NCBI GenBank assembly: GCA_976226885.1
Contig: OZ320317.1
Location: forward strand, 3,100,001 to 3,164,000
DNA from: Iphione sp. A-MEVVRFRX5
Taxonomy: Eukaryota
Direction: 5' to 3'
DNA length: 64,000 bases
The position numbers were made by a program, and so were the translations under genes. The notes under the pieces are model-generated. The model did not search any database and had not been told where the DNA came from. It saw nothing but the letters and a program-made list of their open reading frames with translations. Below, one piece after another: positions 6,815 through 42,700 of this stretch (positions within the stretch are counted from its first letter, which is position 1; the number at the start of each line of letters is the position of its first letter).

Positions 6815-7197
6815 ATTCAAATTCAAATTCAAATTTCCTTTATTGAACCTCTCCGTAGAATACAGAGCTATCATTGCACAATTGATCTTATTGAGAATGA
6901 ATACAAAATAGGGTAATTGCTGTATGGAAAATGGCAGTGCGACACACACAGTTAGCGTCTATACCTGGGAATCACATCGTCAATCTGCTAATATAACAAA
7001 GGAAGCAAGTCAAGGAACAGGTTATTCTCGAAGCAGTAACATTGCCATTGAGCTGTAAAACCGTGCAAGCTGTCAGACATTCACACTCTAGTCAGAGACA
7101 TACAACACTAGATCCAGTTCTTGGCGTATGTACTTATTGTATCAAGCTGACCAACTCAAATAAATGGAATATCTCGTGAACACATTCTGTACTAAAG
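6815..7197 (-). mobile_element. 3' end of the LINE whose RT lies at 14648-16177
   Basis: On minus, AATAAA (6844-6839) is followed by (TTGAAT)x3 (6832-6815). It rejoins 14515 once the Penelope element is removed (TSD-like duplication). Confidence 0.7.
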
Positions 7198-7407
7198 GTT
7201 AAGACGTGGCAAGCATGTGTGCATAAGGCTACCGTGTCAGCTGTATTTCAAGTGAGTGAAACTGTTGGGAAAGAACCCAGTTGTCAGGGAGAGGAAAAGG
7301 TGGGGCATGGGTTGTTGTGGTAACTCTTCCAAGGCCATTGTGATGTCATGAAAACAAATTGGATATTTGTTTTAAGGTGACAATTATTTATCCTGATATA
7401 TGTATCA

Positions 7408-7446
7408 AGACCACAATTTACCGTTTCGACGTTGTTGTCTCATCAG
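7408..7446 (-). ncRNA. Hammerhead ribozyme core (downstream pLTR copy)
   Basis: Minus strand reads CUGAUGA-GAC-AACAAC-GUC-GAAA-C-GGUA: exact catalytic core with a G10.1-C11.1 stem II. Stem I could not be resolved by eye. Confidence 0.6.
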
Positions 7447-7788
7447 GCACCATTATTTTTTAGTTTTAGATTGACATTTGATCACGGTGTCAGCCAGGGT
7501 GGCTGCTCTTAGCACAGTGTCTTTGGGAGTGGGCAAGGAGTCTTACCAGGTCTCCCGTAGGCTGACTGGGTGTCTAACGCCACTGTGGGAAGCCGTCGGT
7601 TGCCCTTCTTTGCCTGCATTTCCCCCCTTATATGAATGGGAGATAGGGCAGGTTTCAAATGTCTGACACCTGTAATCGGTGTCACTCCCTGCAGTGCCTA
7701 AGTCAGTCAGGGGCTTTCCACTGGAGGTAAGGGGCAATTTTTATGAACGTGGCTAGGTCCAGTGGTGTCCCTGGTCTGATGACGCGCT

Positions 7789-10700: not shown

Positions 10701-12771
10701 GGGGCCCAAACGGAGGAGTGGGGTAGGCTTGATTGGTGGGTATCTGCAGGGTTGGGTTATGGGCCTGTTGGGGTTCAGGGCCTACCTCTGGCGGGTCTGG
10801 GACAGTGCTGACCATACTGTAGAACATGTTGGGGTCTGGCTGCCGTTGAGCCAGAAACTCAGTTCGTCTTTCTAACTGTCCTTGCAGGGTTCCCCGTTCC
10901 CTGTTCACTTGCTCTAGGATGCGCTCCTGAGAAAGTTCGAAAAATGGACATCCTGCCTCGGCCAGCATTACCCCGATGGTGTCCAGCACGCGGACCGCGT
11001 CCTCGCGGTCGCTGGCCACCCGTCTGATTAGACCAGACGCAATGGAGTGTTGGACTCCGAAGGTGGCCCTCCTTCATCCGTAGTTGATGTCTCGAACCGT
11101 GTCCGGGTCACTGGTGGCGTAGGGCGGAAGGGGCTCCGCCCCATAGCTCCACGGAGCTAGCAGGTCCAAGTTGTCCAGAGCTAAGAGCCAATGGGCTCTC
11201 GTCTCTGCCTTGGCGCAGTTGACGAGTTGATTACGCACTTTGGGCCAGAGGTCCTCGGCGAAGGGGGGCATTGGAATCCTCCCCTCTGGAGCCTGTGGGT
11301 TGGGTAGGGACATAGTGTTAGGTGGGTCAGTAGTGTGGGTGAATCGACTCCCTACAGTCATTTGATTTGGTACTGGTGGGTCCCTGTTAGTGGTGTCGGG
11401 TGGGTAAGATGGGGCTGACGTGGGGCCTCCCTTACTCCCTTTTGCGTATAGGCTTTTGAGTCTAGATCTCCATTCTTCCGGATTTTGTGTTACCCAGGTT
11501 GGGTCATGGTATAGGGGGGTCTGTGCTCTGCCTTGTGGGGCATTTGGTCTGCAATTGGGCAGGTTTCCCTTAAATTTTCTGGTTAAGTTGGTTCGGAAAT
11601 CCTGGATTTCCGGTTGTTGGTTATTTACCCTCCTTAGTATATGTTTAAAGGTACAGTTTCCTACAGTTGTGTGTACTGTTGGGGCCAGGGGTTGGGGTGG
11701 CTGCTGTTGGGGTTGGTCCCTGATTGTTGTCATCTCTACAACTGTATTATTGAGGGTGGTATTCTGATTTGAGGTTGAGAGTTCCTCAGAGGATTTGGTC
11801 CCCCGTTGGTCAGGTTTCCTACGTTTCTTTGGCTTCTGACGCCTTTGGGGTAATGCGGTCAGGGATTGGTCCCTAACTTGATTGTTCTTCCCTGTCTTTG
11901 GGTCAGGGGTTGAGGCTAGTGCCTGTAGGTGCTTCAGAGTCTCATTGTCATTATCAAGTGATGAAGATGAATTGATTTGTGAACTAATAACAGATAAATT
12001 CAGAAGTGATTGACTGCTCTTAGGTGACCAGTACAGGTCCAAGGTGGACTGTCGTCCATCACTGAGAAGACTCTTAAAAGAATTGTGGCTACGTACCCTT
12101 GGTCCCTGGTTGATGTTGGGATTGGACTGGGCTGGGGCCGCGGGCCTGGGTGTCCCGGGTTGTCTGCCATGGGTTGCCTGGCCGTCGTGTCCCGCCTGGT
12201 CAGGGGGGTTCGGTTGCTGGACCTGCTGTGACTGCAACAGGTTGGGTGGATGATGTCCACTTGGGCCAGGTAAGGGGGTACCTGGCCTATCGGTCGATCC
12301 ATTTGTCATCACTGGTACGCGATCGGTGGCGGTCTGTGATGACGATCCTGCCACTGCAGCTGGGATGCTGCTCAGCCCGTTCTCGTGCGGTCATCTCGTT
12401 GCGTCACCGACCGTCCTCGTGTCGGTCCCGGCCGCTGCAATGGTGATCCCATGCTCCCCGCTGTCCGCTTGGGTCGAGGTGGCGGTCGGTCGTAAACTGG
12501 CATCTTGGTTACGTCCGAACTGTCGGCTTTCATCAAAATATCTGAACGTAAGGCCTTGGTCGGATACAACAGATAGCATATTGGCTTGGTTGTTTGTATG
12601 TTGTCCTGGCGTTATGCGATCGGACTCGTTGAGCGCGGCCCCGGGCGCCTGCGCTTGGTGATCGATGTTTATGTGCTGTGATGCCGTTCGCGAGTAATTC
12701 GCCGTCATCGGCGCTTCGTTTTCGATTGGAGGGGCCGGGTGTTGATCGTTGATGTTCGTATTCTTCTCCAT
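7789..12771 (-). pseudogene. Penelope polyprotein frame, ~1660 codons: long N-terminal extension, DKG region, RT, Cys linker, GIY-YIG endonuclease
   Basis: Track ORFs 12391-12771, 11074-12354, 9658-11019 and 7789-9570 share one frame, separated only by TGA at 12393-12391, 11076-11074 and 9660-9658. Motifs: NLSNQTLSNDELNVLEKGLKFCPTP, VIKPADKGG, GTAMG, YRYIDD, CNTRMCRYC, LIYCITCTRCGLQYVGQT. Confidence 0.92.
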
Positions 12772-13024
12772 AATAAGACATGTCGTTCGTACACACGAAT
12801 AAGGATGATATCGGTTAAGACGTGGTAAGCGTGTGTGCGTGGTGCTACCGTGTCAGCTGTGTTTCAAGTGAGTGAAACTGTTGGGAAAGAACCCAGTTGT
12901 CAGGGAGAGGAGAAGGTGGGGCATGGGTTGTTGTGGTAACTCTTCCAAGGCCATTGTGATGTCATGAAAACAAATTGGATATTTGTTTTAAGGTGACAAT
13001 TATTAATCCTGATATATGTATCAA

Positions 13025-13062
13025 GACCACAATTTACGGTTTCGACGTTGTTGTCTCATCAG
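13025..13062 (-). ncRNA. Hammerhead ribozyme core (upstream pLTR copy)
   Basis: Minus strand reads CUGAUGA-GAC-AACAAC-GUC-GAAA-C-CGUA, the same core as 7408-7446. Confidence 0.6.
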
Positions 13063-13424
13063 GAACCATTATTTTTTAGTTTTAGATTGACATTTGATCA
13101 CGGTGTCAGCCAGGGTGGCTGCTCTTAGCACAGTGTCTTTGGGAGTGGGCAAGGAGTCTTACCAGGTCTCCCGTAGGCTGACTGGGTGTCTAACGCCACT
13201 GTGGGGGGGCTGGGCCCCCCAATTTGTGGGCTACGGTGCCCTTCTTTGCCTGCATTTCCCCCCTTATATGAATGGGAGATAGGGCAGGTTTCAAATGTCT
13301 GACACCTGTAATCGCTGTCACTCCCTGCAGTGCCTAAGTCAGTCAGGGGCTTTCCACTGGAGGTAAGGGGCAATTTTTATGAACGTGGCTAGGTCCAGTG
13401 GTGTCCCTGGTCTGATGACGCGCT

Positions 13425-14509
13425 CTAATTAAAGGTAGCATCCATGATGTTCAGGCCCATGGGTGCGACAGTGTTTAGCCGGTGGATCCAATTGTGTTCA
13501 ATTAGATCTCGTAGCTTCTTTGCATGTGCGGTGTCTGGTTTCGCATGTACAAAGTCCACTATGTGGATTTCGATATCAGCGATGCCTTGGTGTTCGCTGT
13601 CATTGAAATGGTTGCCAACGATGGAGGCACCTGAATTGCGTTTGATGTTCCCAAAGTGTCCTTGGAATCTGTCCATCAAACGGTTTTTGGTCTGGCCTAC
13701 GTATTGTAGGCCACATCTAGTGCATGTTATGCAGTACATGAGATTAGAACTTTTACAACAGACATTTGTTTTTGTTGCGTATGTTTGTTTGTGGTATGTG
13801 CTTTGGATATGTCCAGATTTGTTGATTTTCGGACAGTATCTGCACATATGTGTGTTGCACTTGTTCAAGGCAGGTTTTGGTTTGTCTTCTGGTCGTTGTG
13901 GTAGTTTGGCTCTTACCAACAAATCTCTGAGGTTTTTCGGGCGTCGCAGGCCACAAATAAAACCTCTTTTGTGGGTGTTCCATGTTGCACAAGAGTGGCC
14001 CAGCAGGTCCCAATTGTCCGAGACCCCTTGTTTGAGGCCGTTGAATGATGGGTGGAACGTGATCACTAGGATGTTTTCGTCCTTCGTTGTTCCGTGGCGT
14101 TCGTTGGTGGATAAGAGGTCTGTACGTGATAGTCCCCGAGCCTTGTCGTACGCATCACTCACCAGTTCGGGTGGATACCATCTTCGGACGAAGGCTTCCC
14201 CTAGTTTGATGGCCGAATCAGTGAAGTCTTCATCCCTGCTACAGATCCGTCTGATGCGTAGGAACTGCCCGAACGGGATGCCCCGTTTGCAGTGTAGCGG
14301 ATGGCATGAAGAATATGGCAAATATTTGAAGCCGTCGGATGCTTTGTGAAAGACCCTCGACATCAATTTGCCCTTTGGTCCCACATAGACTGTGGTGTCT
14401 AAGTAGTCTATCGAGTTTGGAGAGTGTTGCATGGTGAATTTTATGCTCGGATGGCACAAGTTTAAATGTGCCAGAAACTCAATGAGTGTGTCTTCGCCGT
14501 GTGTCCAAA
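13425..14509 (-). pseudogene. 5'-truncated second copy of the Penelope thumb/GIY-YIG region, serving as the upstream pLTR
   Basis: Track ORF 13425-14459 is nearly identical to the C-terminal 344 aa of 7789-9570; similarity stops at an A-run near 14509. Confidence 0.9.
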
Positions 14510-14647: not shown

Positions 14648-16177
14648 TCACACCACAGCCTCCTTGGGCAGTTTGACTCGCCGCTTCAGATCGTCTGATA
14701 AGGCATTCCATTTGGCAATGCCATGATATGCCAGACATCTTGCAAAGGCAGTGTTCTTTGGTCTGAGTACGTGGGCTCGTTGCGAGGCACCCCTTCGAGT
14801 CTTGGTTCTCTCTGCAGGTGTCAGGCAACCGAGCCTCATCAGTCTGTGCACGGCCATGATCCCATGCCAACTGATGATGTGCTTTACTCTGTCGAGGAAC
14901 AGTATCTCCATGAGCTTCCTGGAACTAAGAAACTCTCCAACCTGTACTGCAATCCTAGCACAGCGGTTAACATGTATTTGAAGGTCCTGTAATGCAGCAC
15001 TCCTCACTCCATAATAAAGGAATGAGTTAAAGTGTAAATGGCTGCTTACTAGCGAGTTGAACAGAGTCTTTCTTACCCCGATGGGCAGCATGTGCTTGGC
15101 CCTTCCAATTGCAAGTGACCCTGCCCACATTTTCTTCTTGAGCAGGTTGCGGCTTTCCCTGAAAGTGAGTTTAGTGTCGATAGAGTAACCCAACGAGGTA
15201 AGCAACTCAGTCGACACAACCTTTACCCCGTTGAGGGAGACATCAAGGTCTAGCCCTGCTGCTTTCCCAAGCGGCATGCAGAGGCATTTTGTTTCACTCA
15301 GGAGAAAGCCATTATTGCTGCACCACTTAGAGATTTTATTCGCACTAAGTTGTACCAGTGCTCGCAGCTGCAACAGATCTGACGCATGGCATAATACAGT
15401 CAGGTCGTCAGCGTACAGGATCCGAGTGGCATTATCAGGAAGCACGTTGCAGACTCCATCAACCGCTATATGAAATGCCACCGGGCCCAGTACTGACCCT
15501 TGAGGTACCCCGTGCAGCAGTTGTTTCTTTCGGGAGCAAGCGTCACCATATCTCACAAATTGCTTGCGTCCCTCAAAGTAGCCCCTCAGCATTCTGATGA
15601 TTCGAAGGCTTGCCCCATAGTGCTGTAGCTTCGACAAGATGAGTTCGTGTTGAACAAGGTCGAATGCCTTCCTAAGGTCTACTGCCAGGAGGCAGCAGTA
15701 TCGACCAGCATTAAGCAACTCCCATGATTTCAGCAGAATCAATGAGACAGCAGTCTCTGTGCTTCTGCCTTGTGTGAAACCATGTTGGTTGCTGCCAATC
15801 ACGCCTCTCAGATGTAAGTGCTGTCGGATTCCCGTTGTGAGCCATGTTTCCCAAATTTTACCCGGCATGGGTAAAATTGATACAGGGCGATAGTTGGACA
15901 ACGAGGCTGGGTCTCCCTTTTTTAGCACAGGTTTAACTCTGGCTAATTTCCAAGCCACAGGGTACTTGCCAGTCATAGTTATCCTTTGGAATAACCAGCA
16001 AAGGTAGTCTAGGCAGCCTAGCAGGATACCTTTTAGTATCCGAGTTGGTACCCCATCAACTCCAGACGCCTTGTTCGTTTTAACTCTCAGAACATGTTGT
16101 CTCAGCTGAATTGGGGTTGGGTCATCAATGTGAAACTTCCGGTTTGTCCAGTCAGATTGACCCCAGTCATCAGTCAC
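14648..16177 (-). CDS. Uninterrupted LINE-type reverse transcriptase domain (5'-truncated ORF2, no endonuclease, no ATG start)
   Basis: 509-aa open frame with KASGVDG, NYRPVSILP, QHGF..GRST, DLRKAFD, GVPQGSVLGP, LYADD and KWNALS; it begins at the edge of a GA tract. Confidence 0.9.
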   Translation of the reverse strand: MTDDWGQSDWTNRKFHIDDPTPIQLRQHVLRVKTNKASGVDGVPTRILKGILLGCLDYLCWLFQRITMTGKYPVAWKLARVKPVLKKGDPASLSNYRPVSILPMPGKIWETWLTTGIRQHLHLRGVIGSNQHGFTQGRSTETAVSLILLKSWELLNAGRYCCLLAVDLRKAFDLVQHELILSKLQHYGASLRIIRMLRGYFEGRKQFVRYGDACSRKKQLLHGVPQGSVLGPVAFHIAVDGVCNVLPDNATRILYADDLTVLCHASDLLQLRALVQLSANKISKWCSNNGFLLSETKCLCMPLGKAAGLDLDVSLNGVKVVSTELLTSLGYSIDTKLTFRESRNLLKKKMWAGSLAIGRAKHMLPIGVRKTLFNSLVSSHLHFNSFLYYGVRSAALQDLQIHVNRCARIAVQVGEFLSSRKLMEILFLDRVKHIISWHGIMAVHRLMRLGCLTPAERTKTRRGASQRAHVLRPKNTAFARCLAYHGIAKWNALSDDLKRRVKLPKEAVV

Positions 16178-16185
16178 AGCAGGGG

Positions 16186-16320
16186 AGGCAAGGGATGAAG
16201 AAGAGATAAGAGAGGGAGAGAGAAATGGGGAGAGAGGGAGAGAGGGAGGAAAAAGAGGGTGGGAGAGAGATTGAGGGAGAGAGACAGGATTGGAGAGAGA
16301 TAGTGGGAGGGAAGAAGAAA
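16186..16320 (+). repeat. GA-rich tract, likely the other half of 5810-6814
   Basis: Same composition as 5810-6814 and directly abuts the LINE 5' end. Confidence 0.8.
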
Positions 16321-16925
16321 AGCCATTTTGTTTAAAAACAGCTCATGCTACACTCTACATAGCATCATTCTTCCAGTATCTTGATCACACAAAAACCAGT
16401 AGGAGGTCCCCACCTTCTATCACTGCAAGCAATCTCCATATGATATTCTCAACTCCATAGCCTCATCTGCTAACAACTCTTTATATCCATGTGACATATT
16501 ACTTGATGTTCAGCTTGAATACTATCATCCCCCTATTTTCCTCCCAGATCCACTACAGTTATAAAGCCCTCATGAAATTTACACTGTGCATAAACAAATT
16601 TTCCAAGGCAGCACCCTATTCTCATTTCCAACTCTTCAACATAAAGAAACTACAGAAGGGTGATGGCACAAGTTTTCTGCACACATGGGGTATACAGAAA
16701 GTCCAAAATAACAGTCAGAACAATGCACACAATGCATGTTATCTCTGCCAGTATCCTTGCAATTCTTACGATCTGTTCATCTGTTCTGCCAGTCAATACC
16801 ACTGCTGTAAATAAATGTTTCAGCATTTTCATTTATTCTAACTGTACCTCAGCATCACTGAAAAGACAATTCACTGGATACAAAATAAAAGTATCAAAAT
16901 GAATTTGTTTCTTTCATTTTATTCC

Positions 16926-20699: not shown

Positions 20700-23600
20700 G
20701 TTTAAGAGTCAAGCTACATGTAAGTAAGTGGAGGAGGGTTAGGTAGGAAGGGTTAACAGGAGGAGCTAGATAGTGGTCAAAGTAAGGAGAGACAGAATAC
20801 AAGGGTAGGGTAAATGGGAGATATTATATGTAGGTTGTGGTGAGTGGAGTAGAGGAAGGGAAGGGTTAAAGAGAGGAGTAATATATAGGTAGAGGTAAGT
20901 GGAGGAGGGTTAGGTAGGAAGGGTTAACAGGAGGAGCTAGATAGTGGTCAAAGTAAGGAGAGACAGAATACAAGGGTAGGGTAAATGGGAGATATTATAT
21001 GTAGGTTGTGGTGAGTGGAGTAGAGGAAGGGAAGGGTTAAAAAGAGGAGTAATATATAGGTAGAGGTAAGTGGAGGAGGGTTAGGTAGGAAGGGTTAACA
21101 GGAGGAGCTAGATAGTGGTCAAAGTAAGGAGAGACAGAACACATGGATAGGGTAAATGGGAGATAGTATATGTAGGTTGTGGTAAGTGGAGTAGACTTAT
21201 GCGGGAAGGGTTAAAGAGAGGAGTAATATTTAGGTAGAGGTAAGGGGAGGAGGGTTAGGTATGTTGGATTAAAAAGAGGAGTTGTACATTTAGATAAAGA
21301 GACAAGGGCTAGATAGGCAGGATTAAAGAGATGATTTAAATGCAGTGGGAAAAAAGGAGCAGAGGGTTAGGTAGGATGGGTTAAAGGGTGGAGTTATACA
21401 TAGGTGGAGCAAGGTAGAGAAGGGTTCTGTAGGAGGGATTACAGAGATTTGTCATATATAGGTTGGGGTCAGGAGAAAATGGTTAGGTAGGAGGGCTGAA
21501 AGGGAGGAGATATTTATTTGATGGTATTGGGAGGACAGGAAGTAGACAGCGATGTGCAATTTTTACACTAAAATATGTAACACAAGGGCTAGGGTCTCCT
21601 TTCTGAAGGTGCTACTGAGATATAGGGAGGAGGGATAGGTAGGCAGGGTTTAAGGTAGGGGTCTTATATAGGTAGCGGTAAGGAAGGAAGGTTAGGTAAA
21701 TTACATTAAAGAGAGGATTTAGATATTGTTGCAGGTAAGGAATGGAGGGCTCTATAGGTGGGGGTTATAAAGAGACGATATATATATATATATTTAGAGG
21801 TAAAAAGAGCAGGGTTAGTTAGATCAGGTTAAAGGAAAGAGTTATATATAGGTAGTGGTAAGGAAAGGAGTGTTGGGAAGGCAGGGTTGAAGGCAGAAGT
21901 TATATATAGGTGGAGGTGAGCAGATGAGGGCAAGGTAGGAATGGCTACAGGGAAGAGTTGCATAGAGGTTGAGAAATGGAAAGGAGGGTTTTGCAGGTAG
22001 AATTAAATGGAAAGATTTGTAGTTGATGGTATGATGAGAACAAGAAAGTACACAAAGCCAAAGGGAGAAGAAATACCATCGGCCCCCCCCCCTACCGGAC
22101 CCCTCGTGTCTGGAATATCATCATAATCGGAGGGTATTCGAATTACCAATTGTTTGGAGACGCATGGTGCTTGGGTTGCCACTCCAGACCCCCTCCCATC
22201 CGGACATTTTTTCGCATTCCGGTACCCCTCTGGTAAAGGGGGGCCGATGGTACATATGCAGATATTATGAGAGAAAGGTTAGGCAGGAGGGGTTAAATGG
22301 AGGAGTTATGTTTAGGTAGGGGTAAGCAAAGAAGGGTTAGGTAGGTGAATTTAAAGGGACGAGTTATATATAGGTGGAGGTAAGGAGATGAGTGTTAGGG
22401 AGGCAGGCAGGGTTATATATAACCAGAGGTAAGGAGTGGAGGGTAAGACTTGCTGTCATTAAAGGGAGGAGGTATATATACATGGAGATAAGGAGACGAG
22501 TGTTAGGTAAGCAGGGTTATATATAACCAGAGGTAAGGAGTGGAGGGTAAGACTTGCTGTCATTAAAGGGAGGAGGTATATATAGGTGGAGGTAAGGAGA
22601 CGAGTGTTAGGTAAGCAGGGTTATATATAACCAGAGGTAAGGAGTGGAGGGTAAGACTTGCTCTCATTAAAGGGAGGAGGTATATATACAGGGAGATAAG
22701 GAGACGAGTGTTAGGTAAGTAGGGTTATACATAACCAGAGGTAAGGAGCGGAGGGTAAGACTTGCTGTCATTAAAGGGAGGAGGTATATATACAGGGAGA
22801 TAAGGAGATGAGTGCTGGGTAAGCAGGGTTATATATAACCAGAGGTAAGGAATGGAGGGTAAGACTTGCTCTCATTAAAGGGAGGAGGTATATATACATG
22901 GAGATAAGGAGATGAGTGTTAGGTTAGCAGGGTTATATATAACCAGAGGTAAGGAGTGGAGGATAAGACTTGCTCTCATTAAAGGGAGGAGGTATATATA
23001 CATGGAGATAAGGAGACGAGTGTTATGTAAGCAGGGTTATATATAACCAGAGGTAAGGAGCGGAGGGTAAGACTTGCTGTCATTATAGGGAGGAGTTATA
23101 CATACATGGAGATAAGGAGACGAGTGTTAGGTTAGCAGGGTTATATATAACCAGAGGTAAGGAGCGGAGGGTAAGGCTTGCTGTCATTATAGGGAGGAGT
23201 TATATATACATGGAGATAAGGAGACGAGTGTTAGGTTAGCAGGGTTATATATAACCAGAGGTAAGGAGCGCAGGGTAAGACTTTCTGTCATTAAAGGGAG
23301 GAGGTATATATAAATGGAGATAAGGAGATGAGTGTTAGGTAAGCAGGGTTATATATAACCAGAAGTAAGGAGCGGAGGGTAAGACTTGCTCTCATTAAAG
23401 GGAGGAGGTATATATACATGGAGATAAGGAGACGAGTGTTACGTAAGCAGGGTTATTTATAACCAGAGGTAAGGAGCGGAGGGTAAGACTTTCTGTCATT
23501 ATAGGGAGGAGTTATATATACATGGAGATAAGGAGACGAGTGTTAGGTTAGCAGGGTTAAATATAGGCAGAGGTAAGGAGCGGAGGGTTAGGCTTACTGT

Positions 23601-24070
23601 ATTTAAAGGGAGGAGTTATATATAGGTGGAGGTAAGGAGACGAGTGTTAGGTAAGCAGGGTTATATATAGCCAGAGGTAAGGAGCGGAGGGTTAGGTTTG
23701 CTGTCATTAAAGGGAGGAGTTATATATAGGTGGCTGTTATAGGAGGAGGGTTAAGTAGTCAGGGTTAATGGAAGAAGTTATGTATAGGTAGAGGAAAGGA
23801 GAGGAGGTATAGATTGGTTGGGTGGGGGTGAGCGGTTATATGCTGATGGTAGGGAGAGGATTGTTAGGTAGGAGGGGTTAAAGGAAAGAGTTCCATATAG
23901 GCGGTGGTAAGGATAGTCAGGTCAGGCTGCCAGTGTTACAGCTAGGAGTTATATATAGTTGGAAAATAGAAGAGCAAGGTTAGTTAGGTGGGGCTAAATG
24001 GTAGTGTTTTCTTGAGTAATGGGGGTTAAAGGGAGGAGTTATATATAGGTGGAGGTAAGGAGAGGAGTGT
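20700..24070 (+). repeat. Purine-rich minisatellite (~52-bp degenerate monomer) with 171-bp (x3, ~20726-21240) and 104-bp (x13, ~22380-23730) higher-order units
   Basis: AAGTGGAGGAGGG recurs at 20726, 20897 and 21068. AACCAGAGG or a variant recurs every 104 bp from 22421 to 23669. Confidence 0.92.
22076..22250. mobile_element. TA-flanked MITE, 175 bp
   Basis: TIR CCATCGGCCCCCC / GGGGGGCCGATGG with TA on both sides. Confidence 0.8.
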
Positions 24071-24591
24071 GAGAAAGTGGAGTATAGGTATGTAATAGTT
24101 ATACCTGTATTACTCCCCTCCCCTTTAGGAGGAGCCACTATAGACTGTGCAATACACCAGAGGGCAGGACCCAGTTAGCCCTTAGCAACAGTTGCCAAGG
24201 ACTCACTACAGCCAACTTACACTTCCATTCAAACTGCTGCACTGTACACAGAAGGTGAGTGGGAAAGCTGATCCCCAAAGGGTACTTTCTGATTTTCTTT
24301 TTGAGTTAGCAATGAACTGCCAAAAGTGCCTGATGAGGAACAAGGACCCAATTGACGACAAATGTACAAGGGTCCAGCACCACAAACAGTGATCAGGTTT
24401 GGACGCTACTTGGCCCTCACCAGCAGGTGAGTCAAGGGCAACGAACTGGGTTAGTTCGTACTTATTACACCAGGGGGAGGACACTGCAGGGGCCTTATAT
24501 GTCGCGGTAGCGGCGAGCCGCAGGCCACTCACCTGTCGCCCCGCAGTGTTCAAAGTTTAAATCCGCAACCGTTGACGCACTGGTAATCACC

Positions 24592-25497
24592 ATGGCAGAA
24601 GCCCAGCTCTCCGAGCACACAAGATTACTTGAAGATATAGTCAAATGCTTGCAGGCACTAGAGAAAGGGACCAAGAAGAAAGGAACCAAGGGGAAGAAAT
24701 CGGCAGAGGGGGGAGTCGTCACAAGAAGTCAGGGAAAGTCAAACGACCAACCCGAGGACCCCCAGGACCCGGAGACTCCAACTGACGACGAAGAAGTCGA
24801 TGATGAGGAACAAGACCAAGATATCCAACCACCGGATCAGCTCAAGAACAACGCAGCCCCTCACATCCAACAGATTTTGAGCGCCATGTACCCAGATAAA
24901 GCCACGGGTGCAGGTAAGAAGCAGTCAAAGCAAACACCTGCTGTATATGTGCATGTTCCTAAAGGTGAGAAGGCAGAATTGTCTAAGCTGACTTTCCATC
25001 AATATGTGGTAGGATGTATAGCCATGGCTTTAGATAAGGACGTTCCTAAAGCCACCCAGAAGTCTATTCTCACACACTTGAAGGAGGTGGTCGGCGAGAC
25101 AGAGGCACTCGAATGGCTACCTATTTCCCAGTGGGTCACCGAACTCTGAGACGAGGTTAACGCAGGCAGAATAACATGGCAGGACGACCTCAAGATTGAC
25201 AAAATTAAGAGCAAGGCAATCAACGCGTACATCTACTCATCCAAGAAGAAATCGGCCCGCGACGACAAAATACAGGTGGCCTGCCCCACTTGGCAGTCCG
25301 GTAAATGCTCTGAGAAGGAGGAGCACTCACTACACTCAGTCAAGTTGCTTCATTGTTGTGCTTTCTGTCATTTAATGTACAATAAGTCACTGGACCACAA
25401 GATGGACCAGTGTAGGCACAAAAAGAGGCTAGCTCGCTCGGATGCCAAGGATTCAAAAAACTATCAGAGGGACAATTGGAAGCACCAGAGCGAATAG
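24592..25497 (+). pseudogene. Ngaro ORF1 (gag-like) with C-terminal Cys/His finger
   Basis: Track ORFs 24592-25149 and 25276-25497 are in one frame with a single TGA at 25147; CPTWQSGKC..H..HCCAFC..H..DQC. Confidence 0.8.
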
Positions 25498-27327
25498 CAA
25501 ACATACAACCGACTCACGACACCACTAACCCCCCCCATGAACCAAGCGACCCCACTGTCATAAACTCTTTTGCTAATGAAATTTTTCCGTCTAATGCTAA
25601 ACCTGTATCTGTTCCAGCCTTGATATATTCTAGGGTTACGAATTGGCCAAAAATGCTTGCACAATGCCCCGAGCTTGTGAAATTGTATGATTTGGTTGTT
25701 TCTACAGGTGTGCCCAACTACATGGAGGCGAGGGTCCCGCTCGCGTCCACTCTCGATATGCATGAGTGGACGAAGGTCATAGCTGGTGATTCGGTGATTG
25801 ATTGTTTACTGATTAACGGTCTGCAGTACGGTTTTCAGCTCGGCTTTGTTAATACTGAGGTACCTGATATATGGGTTAAAAATTACCAATTGGATAGAGA
25901 ATATGCTCAGCACGTGAGGGCATACATACACGAAGAAATCCGGTTCGACGCAATCCTTGATAGCGGGCCAGACTTGCCTTTTAGCAAATTTGCATGTAGT
26001 CCTATCCTCACACGCCCAAAGAGTAACCCAGCAAAGAGGCGCATTGTTATTGATCTCTCTGCCACCAACGTCAACCAGGGTATACCCGAGCACTACTTGT
26101 ACGATCTAGAGTATCGAATGTCCCTCCCCTCACCACATGATCTGGTTGCAGATATCCGTCTATACAATCAAGATGCATGTATTGCAACGGTTGATATTAG
26201 TTGTGCCTATAGGAACTTCAAGGTTGATCCCCTGGACTGGCCGCTACTAGTGTTTGAATTCGAGGGTTCATACTATGTAGACCGATCCCTCCCATTTGGC
26301 ACAAGGATGTCATCCTTTTATTTGCAGATGATGTCGGAGCGAATCGTGACATACGTGAGAAAGAACTGCCCAGGAATCGTGATGATGGCCTACCTTGATG
26401 ACTACGTGATCGTGGGCGAGCACATATCGGCTACGGAGAGGGCGTACCAGTTCACGAAATGCCTGCTCTATAACTTGGGCCTCAAACTAGCAGAGGACAA
26501 ATGTTCCCCCCCAGGGAAATCAGCAGTCTGGCTAGGGGTGACGATTGATGTTAAAGAAAGGGTTATGTCTATCCCAGTAGATAAGATTGTAAGAGCCCAA
26601 CAAACGGCCGCAGAAATATGCAACAGCTCTCAGCTCACAGTAAAGAAGGTCCAGAGGTTTGTCGGTTTTATAAATTTTGTTGCTAGGTGCTGTATACACG
26701 CTAGGCTGTTTGTGTGCGAGTTGCTCCATCTGTATAGGCTAGCAGTTAAGACTCAGACTACCCATGTGCAAGTCTCACAGAGGCTGGTTGATGACATGAA
26801 ATGGTTCGTTGATGTTATGCCCCAATATAATGGGGTGCAGATCTACCCACAAAGAGTTGTACATGAAAAAAATCTGTGTGGATGCGTGCCCTCAGGGTTT
26901 TGGTGCCTATACGAGTTGCGCCTTCTATGCTCAGGTAAATAGGTACCTCAAAGATGTCACTATATCTAAGTTAGAGGCCATTAACCTCGCCATGTCGGTA
27001 GCAATGTTTGGTGAGAAGTTAAAAGGGAAAACGGTCGAAGTCTGCTCGGACAATATGGCTACAGTCGTAACAATGTCCTCAATGAAGCCCAGGGACCCAG
27101 AGTTAGCAGCCCCTGTCAGGTTTGTGTGGAAGACAGCCATGAGACTTCAGATCGATCTGAAATTCACACATATCCCCGGTGTGCAACTCGTGTTTGCAGA
27201 TGCATTGTCTAGGATGTATTGCTCCAGGAAACACTATGTTATTGCGAAAGATTTTCTGTCTGCAAACAATACCATGAAGAGGGTGTATCCGACAAAGAAG
27301 CTGATGTATGCAATCATTAATTCCTAG
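25476..27327 (+). pseudogene. Ngaro RT-RNase H ORF with one frameshift
   Basis: RRIVIDLS, DISCAYRNF, LPFG, YLDD; then VDAC, LEAIN, SDN, ADALSR. One extra A in the A7 run at 26866-26872 shifts the frame. Confidence 0.92.
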
Positions 27328-27340
27328 GTTCTCTCTACAG

Positions 27341-28278
27341 ATCCAAGGTTAAAACACCTGGCCCGACGGGCGTCAAGAAGGCAGGCTCAGGATGTTACGG
27401 AGGCCTCTCACTCCAGAAGGATATCGCATGTCTCCATGTTCATCACCTTCTGCTATCATTATAAAATCGATATTTATGCCACAACCTATCCAGATATCCT
27501 AGTGTTCCTTGAATACCTTATGGTTCAGAATCTGACCCCCAATGTGATTGCCCAGTACTTGTCGCATGTAAAGATGGCCTTGATGAGGCTACAGCTCCCA
27601 GCTGCTATTGTTGAAAATGTATTTGTCACGGCTGCTATGAAAGGTATAGACAAAACACAGAGCACACTGTTTCAAGAAAATTACCAGTCACACTTATACA
27701 TTTGGCAAGGTTGGTGAAATAGCTCAAATCGATGGGCGTTATTGGTTGTACGCTCACCGCTGTATATACATTCATGTTTTTTCTCTTTGATGCGCCAATC
27801 TAACCTAGCCCCGAGGTCAATCGCCTCCTTTGATCCAGACAAGCAATTGACCCTTGAGGACATTCAAATAAAGAAAGACACGATCAAGGTTAGGGTCAAG
27901 TGGTCGAAAACGATTGACAGAAATAGTAGCAGGTATATTTACCTTCCTCGGACGGGTACTGATGTGTGTCCGCACCGGGCCCTTCGTAGTATGTTGGCTC
28001 TCATTCCGAGGGCCTCTCCAAGGCAGCCTTTGTTTGTGGATCCATGTTCCCTCATGCCATTGACTACTAAGCAACTGGCCGATACATTCTCGCTCCATAG
28101 CTTCCGCAGGGGAGGTGCTGTTGCCCTTCAAAGAGCCGGCACCTCTCTACCACAGATAATGTCACAAGGTACGTGGGTAGCCGCTCCGTCTGTCTTGGTG
28201 TACACAAAGCGTGAGGAAGATTCATTGAAAGCAGCAGGTATCCTTAGGACAGCTGCTCAGGCCTTGCCTGCTGAATGA
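27341..28278 (+). pseudogene. Ngaro tyrosine recombinase ORF (two frameshifts, one stop)
   Basis: LMRQSNL, WSKT, CPHRAL, HSFRRGGA, GTW, VYTK. The frame opens at an acceptor-like TTCTCTCTACAG rather than at an ATG. Confidence 0.9.
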
Positions 28279-31200
28279 TTTTGCCTTGGCCATTTTGATG
28301 TATATATTTAGCTAGTTGTATGTTATATGTATCTGTGTGGACACTATTTCATATGTATTACGATGTCGAGGTCTAGAAATGACCATGTGCTAGGGAAAGC
28401 AATAAACTCTCTGCAATGCCACAACCCCTGTGTCTCGTGTGTGTGTGATAGGCAACGAACTGGGTTAGTTCGTACTTATTACACCAGGGGGAGGACACTG
28501 CAGGGGCCTTATATGTCGCGGTAGCGGCGAGCCGCAGGCCACTCACCTGTCGCCCCGCAGTGTTCAAAGTTTACCACCACCCCTCCCCTACAACTACTCC
28601 CGATATATACGGCCATTTCGATGTATATATTTAGCTAGTTGTATGTTATATGTATCTGTGTGGACACTATTTCATATGTATTACGATGTCGAGGTCTAGA
28701 AATGACCATGTGCTAGGGAAAGCAATAAACTCTCTGCAACGCCACAACCCCTGTGTCTCTTGTGTGTGTGATATACCCCCACTGACTAAGGCAAGCATTC
28801 CACCAAAGAGGAGTACCTGTGTAAGCTATGAAAGGCAGCCCAGGGGCAGCAAAAGGAGCTGGACAAGCTCACAAAGGAAAAAGAAGACCTAACAGGCCAG
28901 GAAATGGCAAAGTTTGAGGCCAAGCTGACCAAACTATGCCTGAGGTGTGAGGAGATCAGATCCCGACCACCAGCGGGTGGCGACGGCCATCCGACCAAGC
29001 ATCCCATGCACAGCAGATGGGACCAGGCCAGGGGGGCAGGACCGGCTGGGGGCAGTGCATCTGGCAGCAGTGAAAGACAGCCGAGCCAAGGTGCCTGTGG
29101 GGGGTCAGTGGACCCACTTGCCACTACCCACCATGGAGAGTGGCAGTCCATAGTGGCCGGGCAGCCGCAACCACAGTGTATGTAACTGCAACCAGAGTGG
29201 TTGCCGAGGCCTCCAGACATGGCAGTATTGACCGTATGTACCGGTTGGGTAGGGTTTATGTCCCAGGAGGACCCAGTCCCACTTCCAGTAATGGTAAATT
29301 CAAAAGAGGAGCCGGACAAGAAGAACCCCACTGGCTGTGGGCAGAGCGACACCTCCCAATGTTTAAGTCAAATGAAGACATACCTTCCTTCTTGAGTTGA
29401 GAAATGCTTTGCAAAGGTGTTAAACATACACTGTTGGGTTGCATATATGCCCTGTGTTTCAGGCACATTCACGCTCACTCCAGGGCTGAGCACAACTCCC
29501 TCTCTGCAGCCAAGGACCAGCAAGTCCTTTTGCCGAAAGTGGGCAGCAGGTTGATGTCAAGAATTATCACCTCACATAATACCTGAGTTATCTGTGTCTC
29601 ATATACGTCCTTTTATCTCTTACTCCACAATAAGGCACAAGATTAACCAATGCAGGTCTTGGAGGTGAGCACAGCAGGCACAGCAGATGCAGGACAAGAT
29701 CCAGTCCAGGACCTGGAGCAACCAGCCACCCCAAGACAAAAGGTCTGCATGCCAGGACAACCAGGAAAGGCAGACACCAAGCTGCCTCCCATCTACCATG
29801 AAGAGGCACCCGATAACATTCTCATTTATGAACTGATCCATAATTCACAGTGTTTTCAAATTTTCAGATCCAGCCAAGGACACATTTCCAAATGCACACA
29901 TATCACATCCTTCGATATGCCCTCACACCCATCCTCAATATATGAGAATGTTAGGGCATCCAGTCTCCCAGATTTCCTCGAGTGTCCCATACCTCTACCC
30001 ACTCAGATAAATCTCAAGGCCTGGTCCAATCTCTTACGCCCATACCCTACCCTATCTCCAATCTTAACAGATTTCCTAACCCTCAGTTTCCCACTCGGAT
30101 ATGTCCTCCCAACAGTTCCAGCATATAACAGGCCCTACCCCCTTCCTGCTAATGACACCCTGCATTTGATCAAATACATATGCACACATTTTGCATGTGG
30201 TGCTATAATAGGACTCCTCCCTGCACACCCATTTCTCTCCTCCTAGGTTCTTAACCCTATTATGACCTGATCCAAGAAAAATACCACTGACAGGCGAATA
30301 ATATTTGACCTCTACCACTCTGGCATCGATTAAGGGATCCTCCGTAACAACTACTTTGGCATCCCCATGAAAGTCCACCTACCTACCCCCTTTGTAGTAG
30401 CAGATCTCATCACATCATCCCCTACCCCCATTTTCAGGGCATCTCTCGACCTGACACAAGCCTATCGCTACTTCATGATCGATCCCTTAGACTGGCTCCT
30501 TCTTCCATTTACTTTTGATTACTCATTATATATGGACTAGGCACTACTATCTGAGACTCGTTTCTCTTCTTTACTCCTACAGCAGCTCTCGAAAATCATT
30601 ACCACTCATATATCATTCCTCTTCCCATCCATCACTGCCTGGGCATATCTTGATGACTTCATCCTATGTTCACCAACACCTCAAGATTTACACAATGCAT
30701 TCTCATCGCTCCAAGTCACAATCTCTCGCCTAGGCTTGCAGCTTTGCCATGACAAATCATCCCATCCCTCATCCTCCATCACACGGTTAGGAGTTAATTT
30801 CAATGCCAAAAACAAGGCCATGGCCATACCCGAGCCAAAAAGTGACAACATTTATCCGAACTCATAGTTTCCTGTATTCCCCTGACCCACATCCCCATTA
30901 AGACAGCCCAGTCATTGATCTGTTCGATCAATCACATGGTTAAATGCAGTCCCCTAGCTAGGTTTTTCATCAATTCCCTTCTTTATGAACTATGCCTAGC
31001 CATCAGACAAGACCACTCAAATCTTACTCTCTCTCCACAGGTCAAAAGGATCTAGCCTGGTATATGGCTGTATTACCTCATTTCAATGGCATCCCTCCCC
31101 AGAAGATATTAGATTCCTTTTTCTGTGATGCATATCCAGAAGGCCTTGGTGGTTACTCCTCCAAGGATTACTGTCACCAACCTGTGCCGTCCCAAATCAC

Positions 31201-33149
31201 CCACCTCCCTGTATCACAACTGAAGGATTTTAATGCTGCCAGGACTATCAATCTATTCACAGGCACCCACAACACCAATTCTAGAATCAACAGTGCAACT
31301 GTCCACAGGCAGGGCCAATGACCCCTTTCTGTCACAAATCCTCCAGGCTATCTGGTACCGAGTAGCAAGGTTCAGCATTCCGATTGTCACGACCCATCGT
31401 CCAGGGGCACAGATGATAATGGCTGATGTCCTAGATACAGTATTTCTCCAAAATATGAGGCCATCGCCAACCAGCACATCCTTAATAGCCCTTCATTGTT
31501 GAGAACATCCCTACCTTCATCACTGGTTGATCACATCCTTTCATTTTAATTTCCAGACCCCAGCTTACAGGCCTGGCATTCATGAGCAGTCAACCTCCCA
31601 TTGCAAGCTGTGACTACTTACAGCCACCAATGTCGACTGTCACAATCAGGCCTCGCCATAGCCTTCTTCCACCACTACGATTTTCCTATCATAAAACTCT
31701 CCACCCATCACATATTAATATTCATCAAATACTTGGTAGACCTTAACTTCTTGCCACAGGTCATTTCCCAATACATTTCATCACTTCGTGTCCTCCTTGA
31801 ACAAGTAGACTTTGATCAGGATGCTATAGAGTCCAAGAAAGTTTCCACTGCCTTAAAAGCTCTGACTTGTACCTCGATTCATACAGGCTCATGTCAGTTA
31901 CCCTTAACTATCCCTATCCTCAAAGGCATTGTTCAATACACCACCCCACTGGGCTCACTTGGTATATGTCTGAAAGCAGTGTTTATCTTCCTCTTCTTTA
32001 CCCTTCTGCAACAGAGCAATATATGTGCCCAAAATACCTCCCAGTTCAACTTGGCCAAGCAACTAACTCAATCTGATGTAGAGTTCACTCCTTAAGGACT
32101 CAATGTAATTATTAAATGGTCCAAGACCATTAAGTCCACCTCACCTGTTTTGTATATGTGTTGATTTATTATTAGCTACATGATATACATACTCTCAGTG
32201 ATGGTTTGTTCATGCCACCCACCCCCCCCAGCGCTATGTCTCACTGTCCACTGTATCTTAATGTGTTTTTTACTGCTGTATTACCATGTGCACATACAGA
32301 TTACCATAGCATGGGTACTCACAATAATGGTATTCAATTGCATCCTCACCTCAATGTATTGTAATTGGTTTCAAGAGACCCAGGCCCTCATATATCTAAA
32401 CTTGGAATGTTTACTGTCATCAGTCTCAAGAGATTTGTCATCCTCTCATAGGATTCTATGGCTGTTTTAATTAATAAATTATTGCCAATATACTCCTGTG
32501 TTTTCTTTGGAATGTGTGCTTTGACAATACACAATAAAAATATTAATATTTATATAAACATACATATATAAATATTAGTGACATGGTAGTATGGCAAAAT
32601 GGTCGGTGATAAGCCAGGTATTACCGGAAATATCTCTGCCTTCTGATATGCATGTGGTCCCCATTTGGGGCCATTTAGAGAGAGATCAGCTTGATTGGGG
32701 TAAAATCAATTTTGGGGGTTTTATTGCCTGTTTGTTGAAACTTTAATGCATGAATATCCGAGGCTCCCCTTGGCATATTTCATGCAGACCAGCATCCAGA
32801 AAAGGCTTTTCTTGAATAGACCCACTTATATTTTGTCCTGGTAGTTGCCTAGCAGACCAGGATGCCCGTTTTGGTGCTATCTTATCAGGCACCATAATGG
32901 ATTTTGATGGGGAAATGGGAATAGGCTACATGTCATTAATTATTGGGAGTGTAGGCCATGGGTACCAGAAATACACGCTACAGGCTGGCACTGTTATTTT
33001 TGTATGAGGAACATCGGATCTAAACAAAGAAGATTCTGTCACTTCTATTTGTATGCAAACTTGTATTTTTATATATAATGTATTTGTACACATAACTTGA
33101 TATTGGATTGAGATTCAATGATGGGTGTTTGTTAAACAGTTAAAAAGTA

Positions 33150-36612: not shown

Positions 36613-38260
36613 ATTCAATTCAATTCAATTCAATTCTTTATTAACCAATCTTTGTCAGATTACAAAGGTTTCCTTGGACAATGTAACATTGTGCGCAAAC
36701 GTCTTGATCATTTCCCGCTGAATAAGTGTTCTCTCTTTGAGCAGTGTTGTAATTGAGATACATTGTACTGATTAAACATTCTATGTACAGGAATAAAGGT
36801 GTACAGTCTCATTATGTATAGAACATCTCTTCATTGTACAGAGCACTTGTTATAACAGATTGGCTTGTTGTACCTGAGCATGCTTAGTTTTACCACAGTG
36901 ATGACAGTTGCACATTGCATTTCAGCTTCGTTTTATCAGAGCAGTGTTCCCTCTTAGGGCGTCCCTTTCGATTCTCTCGGATGGTCAACTCAATATTAAT
37001 AGCTGCTGTTGTGCAGTAGTGATTACCTAATATAAGAACATGTTCTCGGTTTGGGTTATGCTTGGCATTAAGGCGATGTGTTTCTGGCTAGTGGGGATAG
37101 ATAAGCATGAGACAGAAATGTGCAGTTGCCTGGTGTACTGATACGTAGCGAACTGCTATTTCATTCAAATATTGTTCCCCCATTCCCATATTGCTCCCCT
37201 CATTAGGTGCCATGTGATGGTGACATTTCACTTAACCACTTAATACCTGTACCTGACCCCGGCATTGGCCATATTGAACCCCTCCCCACTATCCCATTTG
37301 GCCGTGGATATGCATTAGTGGGCCCCCCCTCCCAGACTTTGCCCTCATAGTTGCAACGGGGTATTAGTGTGTTAGGTGCCGGTTGTTAGCTGAGACATTC
37401 ACGGTCTAGTATTGACCCTTGAGCATTAGTATTTTGCCACTTAGCTTTAAGAGTGAGTACGAGTTTCCACCGGGTACCCAGTCTCTCAGTATCCAATGTG
37501 AATGATTGTTACATGTAAGTTGTGTGTATAGTGATGTAGTCAATTGTGGCTCTTCGCTGTGTATCTTCTTTCCCAGCTCGGCGTTACAGATAGTTAAGTC
37601 TGCAGTCGTTCCCCGTATTCTTGTTCCTCATCCCCTCCCAATTTCCTCCTCAGAGTTTCAGAACCTCCATCTTTTTGAGCTTGTCTGGCAGCTCATTCCA
37701 CCTTACTGCTGCTGCATATCTCAGGCTTCTTTTGAAGACCTTGCTCCTCGGTCTGTCCACCTTGATGCGCAGTGTTTGGCCACCTCTGGTTCTTGAGTGC
37801 TTGCCCATTTTCCAGAGCCCTAGTTTTACTTGGCGATGTACTGCTTCCATGGCTCTTTCGTGTGTCATTTCCTCCACCTGGATAATCCCCACTCGGTTGC
37901 AGATTGTCTTGACAGTCATGTTTGCCTTTGTCTGCAGGCAAAGCTGTATACAACGGTTTAGGTGGACTTGCAGATTGAGCGCAACCGGTTTGGCACCTCC
38001 GTACATCAGAATCGCTCCATACTGCAAGTGTGGTAGGACCAGGGCCTTAAACAACTTAGCGCAGATTCTCCAAGGAACCTGCCTCTTGATCCTTGCAATT
38101 TTTAGTGAAGCGCTCCACATTTTCTTCTTCACGTCCTTCAGGGCTTCCCGCATATTCAAGCGTGCGTCAAGATGGTACCCGAGAAGCTGTAGATGTGTTA
38201 CCATGGATAGTTCCTGCCCATTCACTTTGATACCTAGTAGCTTTTGGCATTTTACCACTT
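36613..38260 (-). mobile_element. 5'-truncated LINE (post-RT region, ~1-kb 3' UTR, tail), related to the 14648-16177 RT
   Basis: ORF 37650-38258 shares KKKMW, LQ-x-H-x-NRC and WN-x-L with the 14648 ORF. On minus, AATAAA is followed by (TGAAT)x4 at 36642-36613. Confidence 0.82.
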
Positions 38261-41149: not shown

Positions 41150-42700
41150 CCTGGGTTTACCACATTTCTTCTTGCTTACCATCATGGATTTCAAAAGGAA
41201 TTTCCAGGGTTGACTTTGGCATACATAAAGCCTCCATTTTTTCCTTTGAGACATTCACTGTTCATGGTCAGAAGCAACCAAACACTTCTGCTACACCACA
41301 TTACTGCATTCAGAGCTAGCTGATTGGCGCCTCTCAGTCTGAGCAAATCCCTGGCTCCAACCAGGATGGTAGGGTTGTCCGCATAAAGAACAATCAAACA
41401 ATCCTTTTGTATGTGACTCACAATTTCATCCATCATGATACAGAAGGCATTAGGGCAAAAACCATAGCCCAAGGAAATGATAAGTCTGTGCTTGATGAGT
41501 CTGAGGGTTGAGTCCTCACCTCAGCACCATGTGAATTGTTTGCACCCCATGGCCCTGACCCTGCAGCGCTCAGCCTCCTAAGGATGCCTGATGAAAGTAC
41601 TAGTTCAAAGGCCTTCCTCAGGTCAGTGTTGTTATAGCTGTTTCTGTACTTCAACCTTTATGGTGACAGTGCTGGTGATCCCCTAAGAACTGGCACACTT
41701 CCAGTTGGCTCATGAGACTACCCACAGATCAACCTTTCAAAATTTTCCTCAGCAGGAGAAAAATCCAAACAGATCTGTAATTACTGAAACAATTCTTGTC
41801 CCCTTTGCTAAAAAAGGGGGGTGCCCCAGGTGGTTTTCCAGGAGTCTGGATATTTGTCAGATGCGACAATTCTGACCAAGATCAAGTAACCAGATCCAAG
41901 ACCAGCAGTAGTAGAGGCTTTAACAGTTTTGTTGGATTGCCCTCTACCCCTGAAACCTTCTATATGTTTTGGTCCTATGTAAGAGGTGTTAGTTCGACTG
42001 GTGAAAGGACTGAAAGCTGAAACTGTGGCTGCATGTTGTTCACACTGTATGCTTTGAGCTTGGTGGTTTGGAGTGGGAGCTTGGCCACTTCATTAATGAA
42101 ATATCTCTTAAAGTATTTCTGTCAAGTTGCTGGCAAAACTATCCCATGCCTAGTACGGGTCCTCACTGAGGCTGATACAAGGCTCACACAGCTTGTCATG
42201 CATCTTGCTGAGGTCCACCTTGTTCCACATCTGGACTTCTCGAGTTTCTGAAATGTGCAGCCTCCTTTTCTCTTTTTTCACTAGCACCCCAGTGCCACAC
42301 TGGAACAGTCTACAAGTATGAACCTTAGCTAGTACTGAATGTCCACCCTTCTATAACCTAGATGACAATGCTACCTCTGAGGTGTTTTGTCTCACTCACC
42401 CTATCAGTGGGAGCTAAATTGTAGCCTTGTATCAATCTTTCCATCAGCGTGACTGGAATTCATCCATGGTTCATTGACTAGACAGATATCCACACTCTCT
42501 TGCAACAGATGTCTATCTAGATCATCCACCTTTTTAAAAAGGCTTTGGGTATTATATGCCATGATCCAAACACCCTTCATGGTAAACCCCCTATTGAATC
42601 ACTAAACTTGACTAGCTCCTATCAACCATTATAGAGTGTGGTACCCAACAAGTCTACATGCTGTCATCACTCCCCACAAGCTCAATGAAGCAAAATTAGT
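41150..42700 (-). mobile_element. Decayed LINE ORF2 remnants
   Basis: KGDKNCFSNYRSV, DLRKAFELV, CPNAFCIMMDEI..IVLYADN; same family as 14648-16177. The upstream boundary is approximate. Confidence 0.65.

Follow-up and report, generated by a model that had tools for sequence, protein, structure and literature searches.

Conserved splice sites and exact intron loss point to a spliced Gag-tyrosine recombinase fusion in Ngaro-like retroelements

The tyrosine recombinase (YR) of Ngaro-like retroelements is almost certainly made by spliceosomal splicing, as a fusion to the N-terminal part of Gag that would be its normal source, with Pol probably reached by a frameshift or by a splice according to the clade. 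This reading builds on splice sites, their constraint and exact intron loss, all of which can be seen directly in the genomic sequence of Iphione sp. A-MEVVRFRX5. We analysed a 64,000-nucleotide stretch of that genome (contig OZ320317.1, positions 3,100,001 to 3,164,000; hereafter, the window) together with related copies elsewhere. In the proposed scheme, the full-length RNA would carry a single usable start codon, in gag, and the host spliceosome would use a phase-1 donor, located some 105-120 codons downstream of the gag start, together with an acceptor just a few nucleotides past the RNase H stop. The protein read from the resulting mRNA would consist of the N-terminal part of Gag followed by a Cre-like YR, the normal form of the enzyme. 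Because the spliced RNA would retain the terminal repeats, it could occasionally be reverse-transcribed and integrated, giving rise to intron-less copies. In one clade (clade 1), Pol would be produced by a −1 ribosomal frameshift; in the other (clade 2), its mRNA would combine this donor with a second acceptor, close to where gag ends.

The window contains one young element of this kind, in which a gag-like ORF, RT/RNase H and YR lie on one strand in that order, with split direct repeats in the Ngaro arrangement A1 ... B1 A2 B2 (Table 1). Pfam assigned only RVT_1 to the Pol products submitted (the 640-aa Pol of the intact relative L028 and a 508-aa piece from the window; E 2.9e-14 for the young element), and RNase H was recognised by motif reading and family alignment. 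Together with the length of Pol, which ends shortly past the RNase H motifs, the Pfam result indicates that a methyltransferase, a protease and a DDE integrase are absent. A PAT-like assignment was rejected, as there was neither a methyltransferase match in Pfam after RNase H nor room for one, and a DIRS1-like assignment was rejected, as no inverted repeat of at least 40 nt was found at the element ends. The element is inserted into a third, unrelated retroelement; the related locus L064 represents the empty site, where the flanks are contiguous and no target duplication is seen.

Table 1. Features of the Ngaro-like elements and of the interrupted third element in the window. A slash marks a splice boundary.
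Feature	Position	Strand	Remarks
Third element, 5′ part	24150..24436	+	matches L064, L067, L071; contains GT 24427
Young element, A1 split direct repeat (left end)	24437..24559	+	97% identical to A2; boundary 24437 from sequence reading and the empty site in L064
Gag-like ORF1	24592..25497	+	ATG 24592, stop TAG 25495-97; premature TGA 25147-49 in the window copy
First coding exon common to Gag and YR	24592..24913	+	107 codons + 1 nt
Splice donor AG/GTAAGA	24912..24919	+	phase 1; overlaps Ala-Gly-Lys codons
Predicted YR mRNA intron (rest of gag and whole pol)	24914..27340	+	2427 nt; missing exactly in six genomic copies
A-AAA-AAC heptamer, putative −1 frameshift from gag to pol	25455..25461	+	clade 1 only
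pol (RT, RNase H)	25455..27327	+	stop TAG 27325-27; indel near 26866 in the window copy
YR acceptor region	27317..27340	+	branch-point-like TTAAT 27317-21, pyrimidine tract, CAG
YR frame from Asp (G/AT)	27340..28278	+	two indels and a 42-nt deletion in the window copy
3′ repeats	28288..28773	+	B1 28288-28450, A2 28451-28573, B2 28611-28773; B1/B2 98% identical; A2 start read from sequence
Third element, ORF1 continuation past the insertion	28774..29446 (end approximate)	+	81% identity to L064
Decayed clade-2 Ngaro-like fragment	29461..32140	+	gag C-terminus, pol, YR; without gag N-terminus and donor; start approximate
Candidate Pol acceptor AAG of the old fragment	29633-34	+	
YR acceptor of the old fragment TTTCCAG/ACCC	31537..31556	+	phase 1; AG at 31555-56

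A preliminary description of this DNA had proposed that a splice fuses ORF1 to YR in the young element, and its coordinates were correct: with GT at 24914-15 and AG at 27339-40, removal of 2427 nt joins 107 Gag codons in frame to YR, and the intron ends 13 nt past the RNase H stop. The donor reads GGTGCAG/GTAAGA and lies 322 nt downstream of the gag ATG, hence in phase 1, and its final G together with AT from the acceptor side forms the Asp of DPRLKHL. As also claimed, YR has no start codon of its own here: its frame is open for just 4 codons above this Asp, none of them ATG. The window copy is nevertheless dead, and an intact Gag-YR fusion cannot be made from it. Compared with the 91%-identical copy L021, it has indels near 26866, 27658 and 27777 and has lost 42 nt near 28086. 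The gag frame is unbroken in L021 and other relatives, and many Ngaro-like copies in the genome have intact frames. This population is very large and diverse, with 2559 YR candidates and about 450 copies that have the gag motif and the donor.

Other repeats surround the element. Direct repeats at 7197-7900 and 12813-13536, 96-99% identical, flank long minus-strand ORFs (7789-12852), and the interval 7197-13536 is probably a young LTR retrotransposon. Minus-strand RT-like frames at 14648-16342, 37734-38237 and 41272-41538 match an unrelated RT in L071 and probably belong to non-LTR elements. A G-rich family of 58-nt repeats occupies 20700-24100, and a homogeneous 104-nt tandem array (22303-23850) lies just upstream of the third element, where L064 has related sequence.

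To follow the splice sites through clade 1, to which the young element belongs, we searched the genome with DNA; the 42 matches fell at 40 places, one of them the window, and the other 39 were taken at full length. The search DNA spanned the acceptor, so that the clade-1 acceptor count is partly selected; the donor count and the clade-2 acceptor count are unselected. Setting aside five copies that lacked a gag alignment across the donor, GTAAGA was present in 35/35 copies, in register after G in 31, after an altered last exon base in 3 and shifted by an indel in 1. Among 24 representatives with pairwise identity below 80% (mean nucleotide identity 61%), synonymous positions at the donor were frozen: the preceding codon was xxA in 24/24, Gly was GGT in 22/22 and Lys was AAG in 24/24. 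The next Lys after these codons was free (AAG in 14, AAA in 10), and in comparison columns the commonest codon reached only 35-59% at three other Gly positions and 52-84% at ten other Lys positions. No other degenerate column was fixed among the conserved ones in the first 185 residues, the highest being 21/23. At the acceptor, AG/A was found in 40/40 copies, with CAG in 38, and pyrimidines made up 80% of the sequence just upstream vs 44% farther up. A branch-like YTRAY occurred in 28 of the 40 copies, whereas four shifted windows used as controls gave 2, 7, 0 and 18. The sequence thus has the GT-AG ends, donor consensus and pyrimidine tract of a U2-type intron, the branch motif being weaker.

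Clade 2 was sampled with the YR protein of an older fragment in the window: from the 150 matches listed among the 2559 candidates, 60 were taken, 4 of them chosen for a long open frame, and 13 loci from two DNA searches were added. In all 64 clade-2 loci with a YR match, AG falls at the codon matching the Asp (Asp/Glu). The acceptor AG was kept in 61/61 loci that retain the donor-to-YR sequence, as CAG/A in 59. The donor G/GTAAG was present in 55/57 loci with a gag match (four copies without one were left out), and its distance from the MYP motif equals that in clade 1; of the two other loci, one was shifted and one was spliced to pol. Between the clades, identity is about 30-37% for Gag and about 40% for YR. 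On the YR tree, which consists of sequences other than named reference Ngaro elements, they are split by a 100/99 branch, and the old YR of the window falls within clade 2. Donor and acceptor are thus near-invariant over about 100 diverged copies of this genome, even at synonymous positions, and, taken with the intron-less copies described below, this conservation places the splice-site match far beyond what chance would give.

The preliminary description had further paired the old acceptor at 31555-56 with a donor at 24427. The acceptor is real and homologous to that of the young element, but the donor belongs to the unrelated third element, so that what had been taken for one old element is, by sequence comparison, two. 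The third element shows 77-81% DNA identity to L064 and, in the ORF1 continuation, 40-43% protein identity to L067 and L071, and GTGAGT is missing at that place in all three, for which reason 24427 was rejected as the partner of the acceptor. This third family has a Cys/His-rich ORF1 N-terminus, and its Pol, as seen in L067 and L071, shares only about 21% identity with the Ngaro Pol. In the clade of the old fragment, the true donor is the same AG/GTAAG site as in the young element.

The spacer between the RNase H stop and the acceptor bears on whether YR could instead be read from unspliced RNA, as a Pol-YR protein made by readthrough or frameshifting at that stop, with the splice signals incidental. 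YR does start just 6-16 nt past the stop in most copies (in clade 1 the stop-acceptor distance is 9-16 nt in 36 copies and 23 and 26 nt in two, with two copies whose RNase H end is broken left out), and three database proteins (P0078, P0101 and P0139) join pol and YR, though they resemble gene-caller joins. However, neither clade confines its spacers to one frame: each of the three is well represented (12/14/12 among 38 copies of clade 1, 14/16/29 among 59 of clade 2), so that a single fixed frameshift or readthrough into YR is ruled out. Moreover, a stop often lies a few codons upstream in the YR frame, and both the invariant donor and the exact loss of the intron would be left unexplained. 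We regard a Pol-YR origin as exceedingly improbable and retain splicing as the source of YR.

The preliminary description had suggested a search for copies lacking exactly this intron, and six were found in the genome (L089, L090, L091, L149, L153 and L163), in which the Gag N-terminus is joined to YR and pol is absent. Their junctions coincide to the base with the donor and acceptor of their relatives wherever the relatives permit comparison: L163 is 86-88% identical to L031 on either side, the two sides of the L091 junction match different relatives, and L153 had no close relative among the loci studied. The six are mutually 50-61% identical and sit on separate branches, and the YR tree requires 6 changes for intron loss, at least 5 of them forced by strong branches. 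Both the A and the B repeat pairs are kept in L090, L149, L153 and L163, which makes it most likely that these four were copied by the element's own pathway; L091 is truncated, and L089 showed no repeat pair within the sequence stretch examined.

L089, L090 and L091 came from the copies picked for a long open frame, and L149, L153 and L163 from genome-wide pattern searches. The first pair of patterns yielded 415 unspliced-type matches (control 14) and 42 spliced-type matches (control 21), of which 34 were read as loci and one more is L089. The second yielded 448 (control 5) and 30 (control 17), respectively; all 30 spliced-type matches were read, and they comprised 15 non-homologous sequences, 9 with a damaged donor and gag continuing, 5 YR-spliced copies and 1 Pol-spliced copy. 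Intron-less copies amount to about 1-2% of those found by motif. The Pol-spliced copy, L103 (C11, about 55.787 Mb), a complete element, was the only one found; its donor is joined to the start of pol, most of gag is gone, pol and YR are kept, and its repeats are 100% identical. Together with the six Gag-YR copies, seven re-integrated spliced copies therefore record junctions. Two candidates were rejected: L092, picked for its long open YR frame, was an ordinary full-length copy, and L177 retained its own acceptor and represents a deletion.

Could the intron-less copies have arisen without splicing, by deletion at microhomology (the common AG/CAG) during reverse transcription? Donor and acceptor do share 2-4 nt, and internal deletions with breakpoints outside the splice sites occur in L177, L187 and L189. 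Yet the breakpoints coincide in six separate lineages: within a 2.4-kb span the same two positions recur each time, both at canonical GT-AG ends, where unspliced copies show synonymous constraint. A microhomology origin is accordingly very hard to credit, and reverse transcription of spliced RNA is the reading we keep.

We then considered the protein that the splice would encode. The first exon certainly supplies the start codon, and it comprises an N-terminal helix, a basic stretch, an acidic linker and two short helices. A structure model of the natural fusion in L163 (mean pLDDT 79.7, pTM 0.63) contained a 25-residue N-terminal helix, a disordered linker at residues 31-84 (pLDDT <50), two short helices and a recombinase whose best match was Cre (E 3.5e-10); YR of the intact relative L028 matches Pfam Phage_integrase. 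The fusion is likely to be the working recombinase, and its shared helix and basic stretch may, as an evenly balanced conjecture, direct YR to the nucleus or load it into the Gag particle.

An in-frame ATG had been named beforehand as a route that would bypass the splice, and YR might then be translated from an internal start at a downstream Met, by re-initiation or from an internal promoter, with splicing a side product or a form of host silencing. Clade 2 does carry a Met at YR residue 28 in 50/61 copies, and 10/40 clade-1 copies have one at residue 7; of the frameshift route named alongside it, a single fixed shift is excluded by the three spacer frames. However, no Met position is common to most clade-1 copies, 24/40 of which have none in the first 25 residues. 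YR residues 1-27 are conserved and would form the first recombinase helix of the model. Both clades, as well as the other hosts, preserve phase 1, a feature that has consequences only for a translated fusion. An internal start therefore seems very unlikely, if somewhat less so than the two preceding alternatives, and the Gag-YR fusion remains the preferred form of the enzyme.

Beyond YR, the two clades appear to reach Pol in two ways, a frameshift signal in one and a second splice in the other, which the preliminary description had overlooked. In clade 1, AAAAAAC occurs near the end of gag in 39/40 copies, always as A-AAA-AAC in the gag register, which is the well-established slippery sequence for −1 shifts. 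Intact copies have pol in the −1 frame, frequently with a stop 2-6 codons upstream. It is highly probable that clade 1 reaches Pol by −1 ribosomal frameshifting; no conserved stimulatory RNA structure emerged behind the heptamer, where local folding energies, computed without a shuffled control, were -5 to -27 kcal/mol. A Pol splice in this clade was rejected, given that no AG is conserved at the gag codon end, that pol-frame stops extend up to the slippery site and that the Lys codon corresponding in position to the clade-2 acceptor is free. In clade 2, an in-register slippery heptamer is absent from the gag-pol overlap in 55/58 copies. Instead, at the place where L103 enters pol, one or the other of two neighbouring gag codons terminates in AG in 57/58 copies (31/32 representatives), and among representatives the Lys codon is AAG in 11/12 when no CAG follows and AAA in 14/20 when CAG follows (Fisher p 0.001). 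The use of the same donor with this second acceptor is quite probably the regular route to Pol in clade 2.

Outside this genome, we inspected 8 of 14 metagenome loci. In L197, L198 and L200 (YR identity 26-30%), a pyrimidine tract and CAG/AT open YR in phase 1; acceptor-like sites were mutated in L202-L204, none was located in L199 or L201, and no gag with an in-frame GGTRAG was recognised in L198. Conservation of donor and acceptor across families, which the preliminary description had put forward as a check, thus extends over clades 1 and 2, and for the acceptor over 3 of the 8 loci inspected in other hosts. In protein databases, a word-index search gave only 2 distant matches, and a profile of the six natural fusions matched 10159 proteins at E <=0.001. 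Among 151 proteins examined, 51 reach the YR start and 31 of these have an Asp nearby, preceded by Ser, Pro, Thr or Ala in 21/31, as CAG/A dictates, compared with a 27% background; this is indirect, protein-level evidence. The amphioxus RefSeq protein XP_078682739.1 and three near-identical 503-aa models have Gag at residues 1-173 followed by YR, and KAI8490524.1 has the same 173 Gag residues but continues through Gly-Lys into Gag. In amphioxus XP_019639177.1 a Gag-like part is joined to YR via Gly, and a partial sister model has an intron-like F-T-G at that place. Judged from their sequences, a Gag-YR fusion of this type is present in both RefSeq model families. The proposal that YR is made as a spliced ORF1-YR fusion is strongly supported by four lines of evidence: constraint at synonymous positions, spacers in every frame, the six copies that lack the intron, and the amphioxus models.

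Collectively, these sequence comparisons indicate that Gag-YR splicing is a real, conserved and probably widespread expression mechanism of Ngaro-like elements. The consulted passages of Ngaro descriptions present three separate ORFs and leave the expression route of the recombinase unstated, and here YR lacks a start codon; the splice would explain how the enzyme is expressed and give its true protein sequence, which biochemical work on these recombinases requires. It would also mean that the N-termini annotated for YR ORFs are wrong, and that some host gene models labelled "uncharacterized" represent products of spliced transposon RNA. With two related clades in one genome using different solutions for Pol, the evolution of frameshifting versus splicing becomes directly testable. 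A broader reading, which we find plausible without leaning towards it, is that in animal Ngaro-like elements the gag donor is an ancestral expression hub: YR would always be a Gag-N fusion, Pol would have switched between splicing and −1 frameshifting with the donor kept, co-assembly through the Gag helix would bring the enzymes into the particle, a task for which LTR elements rely on a polyprotein and protease, and intact spliced Gag-YR copies would constitute a mobile, YR-only, non-autonomous class.

The arrangement resembles the splicing of retroviral env, gypsy env and foamy virus pol, in which one 5′ donor is joined to acceptors before downstream genes and the unspliced RNA serves as genome and gag mRNA. 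As there, a single donor would serve acceptors of downstream genes, with unspliced RNA retained for the genome and gag. Here, in contrast, the spliced product would be the integration enzyme, carrying more than 100 Gag residues, and unlike retroviruses the Ngaro-like element has no LTRs, protease or DDE integrase.

Among described retroelements, Ngaro (order DIRS) is characterised, in the portions of the sources consulted, by split direct repeats, gag, RT/RNase H and YR on the same strand, and the lack of a methyltransferase and of target duplication (PMC3266345, PMC7192593, PMC6681497); the young element matches in its repeats, its gene order and both absences. In the available part of one account, Ngaro genes are separate ORFs, with YR "in the same frame or frameshifted" (PMC3783388). 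The elements studied here differ from Ngaro as described in those passages in that YR would be an exon fused to Gag-N, the route to Pol depends on the clade and there is no hydrolase ORF. In the relevant passage on Cafeteria, Ngaro copies have deletions of about 2 kb covering ORF1 (PMC8547959). No account of a Gag-YR splice appeared in the consulted portions of PMC9341512, PMC7192593, PMC6681497, PMC8547959, PMC3783388 and PMC3266345, nor in those of PMC5633606, PMC5580714, PMC3950715, PMC2632668, PMC4157794 and PMC3212892. Within this partial literature the splice is undescribed; the founding Ngaro paper, the 2015 review and the Repbase annotations lie outside its scope and could bear on novelty. 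A further parallel in this material is with Ty1/Copia elements (Drosophila copia, BARE1 and Arabidopsis EVD), where, according to the section consulted, a spliced RNA with pol removed or truncated makes Gag alone (PMC5580714). In both systems, conserved spliceosomal sites within coding sequence would set the ratio of element proteins; unlike Ty1/Copia as presented there, however, the spliced RNA of the Ngaro-like elements would encode the enzyme fusion and the unspliced RNA would encode Gag.
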